Shown here in pieces: positions 16,829 through 17,901 of a stretch of DNA of 32,000 bases. A model generated the notes under the pieces. The model was given only the letters and a program-made list of their open reading frames with translations. It ran no database searches and was not told the DNA's origin. The translations under genes were made by a program, and so were the position numbers. The first letter of the stretch is position 1; each line of letters begins with the position of its first letter. The DNA lies in the NCBI GenBank assembly GCA_003056265.1, contig NBVN01000003.1, positions 60,001 through 92,000 on the forward strand, in the 5' to 3' direction. The stretch comes from Zestosphaera tikiterensis. GTDB lineage: Archaea > Thermoproteota > Thermoprotei_A > Sulfolobales > NBVN01.

Positions 16829-16873
16829 CGACTAATCACCACATGCTTGAGGCTCCATCTTTTAAGGCGGGGT

Positions 16874-16891
16874 AAAAGCTTATAAGCTTTT
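16874..16891. promoter_or_regulatory. Perfect 18-nt palindrome AAAAGCTTATAAGCTTTT: TATA/BRE-like element, candidate bidirectional promoter (rps12 on -, GC-rich block on +)
   Basis: Its centre lies about 54 nt upstream of the rps12 GTG and about 26 nt upstream of the G-rich block starting near 16909 on the + strand. Confidence 0.45.
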
Positions 16892-16908
16892 TGTAACTTT
16901 ATGTTTTT

Positions 16909-17100
16909 GGTGTTGGGTGTGGGCAACCGTAGCTTGGGATGAGACCCACACCTTCCCGGAGCTGACGGCGGGAGCTGATAGATGATGCGCCCCCGGTGAG
17001 GGGCTTCAGAGAAGTGATGGAAGCCCTAGAGGGAGAACCCCTCTTAAAAACAACAGGGGCCATCAGCACCTACAGCCTCGCTATTTATGAAAGTGGAGAA
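16909..17100 (+). ncRNA. Candidate structured RNA, family unassigned (GC-rich block A)
   Basis: About 62% GC over 16921-17040 (hand count 75/120) with G>C on the + strand. There are several 6-10 bp helices, a TATA-like box upstream and a T6 run downstream. No ORF longer than 30 aa. See findings. Confidence 0.35.
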
Positions 17101-17242
17101 CACTTATAAGTTTTTTGCTTGTATACCCACGCATGTAGGCCAACTGCCTAGCGAAGCAGTTTTAAGTTTTATAGGTGTTGAATAGGTATTAATAGTGCTT
17201 CATTTAGTGGTGGGTTTATAAGTTTTGCTAGCGCTATCGTAA

Positions 17243-17455
17243 AGTGAGGGTTGGGTTGACGATTCGATGAGGAGACGGAGGTAAGGATGAAACCCAACCT
17301 AATGAGGCCCTACCTTCGCTTGAGGGAGTCTAGCGGAGCGATGCGGAAGTCTAAGGCAATGAAGCTAAGCTCTCGAAAAGCGGGGGGTGGAGCGAGGATA
17401 GGGGCGATGAGTACCTACGTATGCAAACGAAAGCTTACATAGGTACGAACCCTAA
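17243..17455 (+). ncRNA. Candidate structured RNA, or a leader plus a 51-aa basic micro-ORF (17287..17442); unassigned (block C)
   Basis: TTTATAAG box at 17215-17222, purine/G-rich + strand, three helices of at least 9 bp, GGAGGT 4 nt before ATG 17287. See findings. Confidence 0.3.
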
Positions 17456-17457
17456 AG

Positions 17458-17901
17458 TTATGAAACGCTAACTACGTCTATATCGTAGTATCGTTTTAAG
17501 ATTACCCTAACTTTATTAACGTTACGTCCGTTCTTACCTATCGCTAACCCTTTATCCTCAGGCATTACTTTAACCTGCAATATCTTCTTACCGTCTTTAA
17601 GCTTGTTCAACTTTATGCTAACTACCCTTGCAGGCAGAAAGAGATTCTTAACGAAGTCTTCAAGTGAGTCAGCCCACTCAACGACCTCAATCCTCCTGCC
17701 TAAGATCTTAGAGAGTTGCTTAACGTTCTTTCCTTTAGCACCTACAGCTAAGCCGGCGGTTCCTGGGGGGACTATATATATTAACGTGTTAGACTCTTCA
17801 TCGACGATGCAGTCCTTAGCCGTAATCCCGGTGATGTCGTTTAAAAGTGCTATATACTTAAGCTCGTCCGCAGTTAATTTTACAGGCAAATCACTTCTCA
17901 C
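17458..17901 (-). CDS. nusA: Archaeal NusA-like protein (two KH domains)
   Basis: Two GxxG KH motifs (VGAKGKNVKQL, IGKNGRNVNKV), about 147 aa, in the position after rpl30e. The GTG start overlaps the rpl30e stop by 11 nt. Confidence 0.85.
   Translation of the reverse strand: MRSDLPVKLTADELKYIALLNDITGITAKDCIVDEESNTLIYIVPPGTAGLAVGAKGKNVKQLSKILGRRIEVVEWADSLEDFVKNLFLPARVVSIKLNKLKDGKKILQVKVMPEDKGLAIGKNGRNVNKVRVILKRYYDIDVVSVS

Follow-up and report, generated by a model that had tools for sequence, protein, structure and literature searches.

A PATE/MITE-like, protein-less cassette with a structured and probably guide-type RNA in the nusA-S12 spacer of Zestosphaera tikiterensis

On the whole, our analysis indicates that the segment 17145-17453, on the + strand of the window (the whole stretch of 32,000 nucleotides analysed here), is probably a PATE/MITE-like derivative of a TnpB-type element that carries the RNA gene of a likely omega-type guide, a reading to which we give a probability of about 0.68. 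The cassette is 309 bp long and protein-less, and consists of a left-end piece, a promoter and an RNA scaffold. Block C, the part at 17243-17457, is thus named in the preliminary description, which took it either for a structured RNA or for a hidden gene of a 51-aa basic micro-protein. The RNA half of this alternative holds and the protein half does not. What the description missed is that a mobile element is present here, with Block C as its RNA-bearing end. As a whole, Block C is of a known kind, a protein-less transposon derivative with a guide-like RNA, from a parent of variant architecture.

The cassette opens with a segment at 17145-17213 (+), which begins GCCT (17146-17149), is common to the three copies of subfamily A, among them that of the window, and holds at ~17166-17174 a second TATA-like module, TTTTATAGG. 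It is followed by the TATA box of the RNA gene, TTTATAAG (17215-17222, +), from which the archaeal TATA-to-start spacing predicts a transcription start at ~17243-17247. In most full-length copies a TATA-like box is seen in the alignment 23-36 nt 5' of the RNA start; a strict regular expression recovered only part of the boxes visible there. The RNA scaffold P0-P1-P2-P3 occupies 17243-17453 (+, ~211 nt) and scores 175 bits with the covariance model R1, which was built on alignment A3. Its 3' limit, 17453, is the point of divergence among all three subfamily-A copies, and the element end is marked by a terminal motif GAACCCT (17447-17453, +), which is TEM-like. Similarity between copies stops at 17453 and the first run of at least four T lies 41 nt downstream, with no consistent pattern of a T-run terminator just past the element end across copies. 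The unique flank at 17454-17475 (+) would be the candidate guide segment if the RNA is an omega RNA, its length being a guess. As a unit, 17145-17453 is collinear with C14:407597-407904 (96.8% identity) and C2:412047-412352 (85%), which lie in unrelated contexts and whose similarity to the window cassette breaks sharply at both ends. A search of the cassette ends in the three subfamily-A copies found neither a TIR nor a TSD.

The features that the preliminary description listed for Block C are all found where it placed them, and its structured-RNA reading is borne out by compensatory base changes in dozens of homologues. The + strand of 17243-17457 folds at -75.2 kcal/mol, compared with -58.0 ± 4.2 kcal/mol for shuffled sequences (n=200; z -4.13). 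None of the 200 shuffles folds as well, and all three helices are in the MFE structure; the minus strand folds less well (z -3.2). This shows a structure beyond chance, which the covariation of homologues confirms. In particular, the covariance analysis of the helices that had been proposed as a check finds compensatory changes in P1 and P2. The P1 hairpin (17249-17299, +) has the stem already described, GGTTGGGTT at 17249-17257 pairing with AACCCAACC at 17291-17299, and encloses a purine-rich loop (17258-17290) with the consensus GACGA..CGAUGAG..GAG.UAAGGAUGA, in which many columns are invariant. The stems differ among homologues with pairing kept, for example GGGUUGGGUU/AACCCAACC, GGGUGCC/GGCACCC, GGAGCCC/GGGCUUC and GAGCGAC/GUCGCUC among others, and the P1 duplex beats the shuffled control in 32 of 39 distinct members.

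P2 is a long bipartite hairpin at 17307-17393 (+) and holds the second helix of the preliminary description, in which CGCTT (17317-17321) and GGGAG (17324-17328) pair with CTCTC/AAGCG (17370-17382), as is indeed the case; its apical extension is absent from short-form homologues. On alignment A5, made of 46 distinct sequences, pairing holds in 92.5% of the P2 cells, both partners vary in 16 of the 22 pairs, and the covariation score is reached by none of 500 shuffles, whereas slid controls have only 31-58% of cells paired. A largely independent second set collected from the protein side, A6, gives again 92.5% paired and 0/500 shuffles. The ends of the RNA are joined by P0, whose 5' strand AGGG (17247-17250, +) has as partner CCCT at 17450-17453, the last four bases of the element. 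Read by eye from the homologues, without a statistical test, P0 pairs as AGGG/CCCU in some and as AGAG/CUCU in others (L105, L046, L068), and within subfamily C as UAGGGG/CCUCUA or UGGAGG/CCUCUG, with L104 and L108 as exceptions. The third helix, the subterminal hairpin P3 (17411-17446, +), is present with its 14-nt arms (17411-17424 / 17433-17446), 12 nt of which are paired, and varies by subfamily; in many homologues its stem is flanked by GA and GAUGAA, which look like K-turn elements in sequence. Two divergent members, C2:333586-333760 and C18:27272-27446, score only 27-32 bits with R1 and carry a P3-type hairpin 83-93% identical to that of the window. The shared P3 module on divergent cores suggests that modules are swapped between subfamilies.

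The 51-codon ORF (17287-17442, +) exists as described, from ATG 17287 to TAG 17442, and we judge it a non-gene. In favor of a basic micro-protein of 51 aa are the GGAGGT located 4 nt upstream of the ATG, the open frame itself, and a similar frame of 40-50 codons open in subfamily C. Against it, the homologous frame meets a stop by codon 36 in 8 of 14 other copies (in four of the eight already at codon 5 or 6), and the copy with 96.8% identity has a 1-nt deletion that shifts the frame. Inter-copy indels are mostly not multiples of three, and substitutions track base-pairing rather than codon logic. The test of frame conservation that the preliminary description itself had named therefore finds stops or frameshifts in most copies, in paralogues and orthologues alike, and with them the micro-protein reading fails; we leave it next to no probability. 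The gating of translation that had been imagined from the position of the SD and the ATG within the first helix fares no better, as neither the start codon nor the SD is conserved among copies, and in place of GGAGG other copies have GAGAT or AAGAC. The SD/ATG region is a loop conserved for RNA reasons, and the basic peptide is a by-product of the purine-rich RNA sequence. For annotation, one false small-protein candidate is removed.

We then present a view of the repeat family to which Block C belongs. A DNA search of the genome holding the window gives 17 matches, and blastn together with R1 gives 13 full-length and about 8 partial or divergent copies. All copies are intergenic, in either orientation relative to the neighbour genes, and in contexts that differ from copy to copy. 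The shared core corresponds to 17243-17410 of the window; behind it come a hairpin that varies and a short tail that is conserved. Counted from the RNA start, each subfamily has a sharp 3' limit (+192 to +211), whereas its reach on the 5' side is variable. Searched with R1, the family is patchily distributed: it turns up in 6 of the 52 genomes of the taxonomic family and in 25 of the 151 of the order, frequently as several copies per genome. A search of Block C against Rfam 15, whose models include RNase P, SRP, C/D, H/ACA and HEARO RNAs, gives no match that reaches the gathering score, and relaxing E to 10 adds noise only, so that we have an RNA family absent from Rfam and present in many hyperthermophilic archaea. 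Known RNAs were considered as candidates. RNase P and SRP RNA both sit elsewhere in the genome with high scores. A C/D-box or H/ACA guide RNA, which the GAUGA motifs might recall, does not fit in box order or pocket geometry, and the Rfam models are unmatched. As for the omega RNA of a canonical TnpB, none of the ~13 such genes in the genome adjoins a copy, and their 3' regions are dissimilar to the family.

Outside Z. tikiterensis the RNA has a recurrent neighbor. In two complete Sulfolobaceae-like genomes and one other, it lies ~190 nt upstream of, and divergent from, an ORF of ~360 aa. Overall, starting from the RNA, the divergent ~360-aa ORF is found with a gap of 171-229 nt in at least nine genomes (G096, G023, G043, G094, G149, G177, G182, G106 and Z. 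tikiterensis). Starting from the protein, the RNA is found at 47 of 80 loci, where it is encoded on the opposite strand and ends 180-240 nt ahead of the start codon. These 80 loci are from named archaea, including Desulfurococcales, Acidilobaceae, Sulfolobaceae, Thermocladium and others, and those without an RNA match are mostly the ones with the most distant proteins. The orthologue in Z. tikiterensis (47-49% identity) is C14:81184-82278 (364 aa), in the single full-length element of the genome, and it adjoins the RNA copy C14:80812-80974 in the same divergent arrangement. Three distant paralogues of the protein (27-39% identity) are located at C8:83330-84319, C2:9125-9664 and C2:156474-157198, and the R1 search finds no RNA copy beside them. 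In a Desulfurococcales MAG (JAVVGG010000035.1, locus L114), two RNA copies share a 3.4-kb locus with the TnpB-like gene, the first lying upstream of this gene and the second ~700 nt downstream, both on the opposite strand.

The protein family, 350-380 aa in size, has more than 200 homologues, annotated as 'hypothetical', 'predicted transposase' or 'IS605 OrfB'. A Pfam scan of the ~360-aa family proteins gives no match, and NCBIfam gives weak matches to TnpB and Cas12f2 models. In an alignment of 23 homologues, the RuvC-like motifs have an unvarying D205, E269 and D336, and no conserved cysteines of a C4 zinc finger are found between RuvC-II and RuvC-III; likewise the zinc ribbon PF07282 is unmatched in the scanned family proteins, and the genome scan gave none at C14:81184-82278. 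Since a sequence search of the partner against PDB chains returned noise only, a fold search was used. The AF2 model (pLDDT 87.5) matches in Foldseek Cas12f, Cas12k, the ISDra2 and ISFba1 TnpB and Fanzor, with E from 4e-10 to 1e-5, and to 1e-6 when only Cas12f, Cas12k and TnpB structures are counted. The partner is thus predicted to be a TnpB/Cas12f-like nuclease without the zinc finger.

The full elements show where the boundaries are located. The Sulfolobaceae-like genomes G177 and G182 have in common a block of 1481 bp with 84% identity in different contexts, and in this element the RNA 3' end is one boundary while the stop codon of the ORF lies 21 nt from the other, leaving little non-coding room for another RNA past the stop. 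G094 has two full elements and three protein-less copies of ~225-335 bp with an identical sharp end on the RNA side. The RNA 3' end is the boundary in G177/G182, in G094 and in all subfamilies of the Z. tikiterensis genome. Subfamily C most clearly has the form of a PATE/MITE, as the far end of the parent is joined to the RNA end at 3 sites: its three solo copies have upstream of the promoter a 68-nt piece ~91% identical to the stop-codon end of the full element. This homology shows that they arose by internal deletion and retain both ends. In subfamily A, the three copies, that of the window among them, have the same internal junction in three contexts; they are collinear and lie in unrelated surroundings, and their left-end homology to a parent is at the motif level only. 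No full-length parent of subfamily A is found in the Z. tikiterensis genome. BLAST of the window left segment against the far ends of full elements gives no match, and what is common to them is only a GCCT...TTTTRA pattern. That 17145-17213 is left-end derived is therefore weakly suggested, by analogy with subfamily C and its 91% homology.

The element ends carry short related motifs. Far ends start with TTCTRGA, GCCT or GTCT, and RNA ends finish with CTCTRGA, CCCT or CTCT(T). The A-type full elements of other genomes begin GCCT, 12-20 nt past the TnpB-like stop codon, and the window cassette likewise has GCCT at its start (17146-17149) and CCCT at its finish (17450-17453). The left-flank motif and the terminal motif of the same element are nearly identical (TTCTGGA and CTCTGGA; GCCT and CCCT), and if the left motif serves as a TAM, the avoidance of self-targeting would hang on a single base. 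No clear hairpin is found at the left end. The genome has one Y1 TnpA gene (C2:108751-109107). The full element L045 (G023) has a perfect 13-bp terminal inverted repeat, TCTAGAGGTCTGA ... TCAGACCTCTAGA; the other members have only the short direct motif at both ends.

It is of interest to compare these elements with known systems. PATEs often encode omega RNAs that are necessarily used in trans (Meers et al. 2023, PMC10055086). Like them (PMC10055086), the window cassette is short and ORF-less, retains both ends, carries an RNA scaffold that reaches the boundary with its 3' end, and is multi-copy without TIRs or TSDs; the nuclease and the transposase would come in trans. Unlike in PATEs, the RNA here has its own internal TATA promoter, the nuclease gene of the parent is directed away from the RNA, the elements reside in hyperthermophilic archaea, and the homology of the left end to the parent is weakly supported. 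In comparison with the TnpB/omega-RNA systems (ISDra2 TnpB, PDB 8EXA and 8H1J; IS607; Cas12f), the partner has in common the predicted fold and the RuvC D-E-D triad, both of which are in the protein of the parent element, outside the window. A structured RNA at the element end, which would here also read through into the flank, and short related motifs at the left flank and right end, TAM/TEM-like, are further likenesses. The differences are that the partner is shorter (350-380 aa), has no C4 zinc finger, and is missed by Pfam TnpB models and by the PDB sequence search, and that the RNA gene, which always occupies the opposite strand at 170-240 nt ahead of the start codon, does not overlap the 3' end of tnpB. 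The C4 zinc finger is typical of TnpB and lost in some clades (PMC10691335). IS200/IS605 elements carry transposon-adjacent and transposon-encoded motifs (PMC10055086), which the related end motifs here resemble. Of the other traits of IS200/IS605-type (peel-and-paste) ends, the picture is mixed: there is a right-end hairpin, P3, and neither TIR nor TSD is found at the cassette ends, but a left-end hairpin is not found either, and the homologue in G023 shows its 13-bp inverted repeat instead. An ncRNA 'within ISC1476' of S. solfataricus is listed by Danan et al. 2012 (PMC3326292). Compared by name and description only, ISC1476 (Saccharolobus solfataricus) is alike in its internal ncRNA and in a size, implied by the name, near 1481 bp, and a relation between the two elements is a lead only. 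A limited literature search found no description of a divergent, self-promoted omega RNA.

Putting these results together, the parent would be an element of two divergent genes, one for a ~360-aa TnpB/Cas12f-like nuclease and the other for a structured RNA of ~130-210 nt with its own TATA promoter, the RNA being transcribed outward and its scaffold ending exactly at one element boundary. A miniature would have lost the nuclease gene, retaining the promoter and the complete RNA together with a short left end, and would then have spread to at least three sites, including the normally tight nusA-rpS12 spacer. By analogy with the OMEGA systems of IS200/IS605, the RNA may read past the element end into the flank and bind the TnpB-like nuclease, which C14:81184-82278 would supply in trans. 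It might then guide cleavage of the 'empty' donor joint, formed by the left-flank motif and the right flank, so that recombination could restore the element after excision. The cassette would be moved by a transposase acting in trans, for which the one Y1 TnpA of the genome is a candidate. Against this explanation are the lack of a full-length subfamily-A parent in this genome, the left segment that BLAST leaves unlinked to a full-element end, the near identity of the left-flank and terminal motifs, and the lack of a clear left-end hairpin, which makes the transposition chemistry tentative.

As to its function, the RNA is most likely the omega-type guide RNA of the element, judged by analogy. 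This is argued because the scaffold ends at the boundary, because the partner combines a predicted Cas12f/TnpB fold with an intact triad, because little non-coding space is left beyond the stop codon for a second RNA, and because the miniatures retain the promoter and the RNA in full while their other end is cut down to a stub. Against a guide, the RNA gene lies upstream of the tnpB-like gene and diverges from it, while in canonical systems the omega RNA shares the strand of the gene and overlaps its 3' end; moreover, it belongs to no Rfam family, and the partner has no sequence-level match to solved TnpBs. The same divergence speaks for an RNA of the transposon that is not a guide, either a regulatory or antisense RNA or a structured end needed by the transposase, with the real guide overlapping the 3' end of the ORF. 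Omega RNAs can indeed overlap the CDS (PMC10691335), and P3 with the terminal motif is expected of an IS200/IS605 end whatever the RNA does. However, the miniatures keep 68-90 nt of the ORF-stop end compared with the whole RNA and its promoter, and the scaffold stops precisely at the boundary, which is also the behaviour of guide scaffolds. In addition, the G-U-tolerant covarying pairs and the conserved TATA box at the right distance speak for selection acting on a transcript. In the identity profile of two full-element pairs, in which a conserved RNA in the 3' end of the ORF was sought, that end does not stand out in conservation from the remainder of the gene, but the profile is uninformative. 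We hold this alternative to be improbable.

Fainter still is the chance that the copies are small RNA genes domesticated by the host, for example L7Ae-binding K-turn RNPs or trans-acting regulators, with the transposon link being historical. Each copy has indeed its own promoter, the GAUGA-type motifs resemble K-turn elements, and solo copies outnumber full elements in several genomes. Such genes would not be expected to have the patchy distribution reported above (6/52 and 25/151 genomes), differing contexts, sharp element-like ends with left-end pieces kept, and a lineage-specific copy in the window. Returning to the omega-type guide as the preferred function, a bolder form of it is that the divergent, self-promoted RNA is the true guide of the zinc-finger-less ~360-aa nuclease and that the miniatures are dispersed guide genes acting in trans, which we regard as tentative and put well below even odds. 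Guide and nuclease would then be separate transcription units, with one nuclease gene and a different flank-derived guide in each miniature; if true, this would be a step towards array-like guide genes uncoupled from the nuclease, served by a very compact hyperthermophilic RNA-guided nuclease.

Whatever its function, the RNA family goes together with a divergent TnpB-like nuclease that escapes the standard TnpB models of Pfam. Should the RNA prove to be a guide, a guide of omega type can be a gene of its own with its own promoter, able to outlast its nuclease and to exceed it in number, which bears on the origin of CRISPR-like arrays from transposon RNAs, and the ~360-aa protein is a thermostable candidate editor. 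If it is not, Block C is still an ordinary transposon relic.

The location of the cassette is also noticeable. The window holds on the minus strand the cluster rpoA'-rpoA''-L30e-nusA, then a gap, then S12-S7-EF1alpha, and Block C is on the + strand in the gap, which is 629 bp long. In 12 relatives the spacer between nusA and S12 measures 46-92 bp, against 632 bp here (window 16829-17457), which shows that it is filled by inserted DNA; judged from this comparison, the window copy is a lineage-specific insertion. The 309-bp cassette is about half of the spacer, and accounts for that much of an odd gap in a conserved RNA polymerase/ribosomal-protein cluster. Another part of the spacer, Block A (16919-17039), is 92% identical, in antisense, to sequence ~180-300 nt past the stop of a canonical tnpB on contig C13, and may by this match be a piece of the end of another TnpB element. 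The operon spacer appears to have taken up no fewer than two separate insertions, namely Block A and the cassette of Block C. Beside the near-identical copy of the window cassette, ~280 nt upstream of its RNA start, a 94-nt fragment (C14:407319-407412, L024) is 91% identical to the 3' coding part of the canonical tnpB at C8:1348-1545, and looks like the remnant of a TnpB gene.
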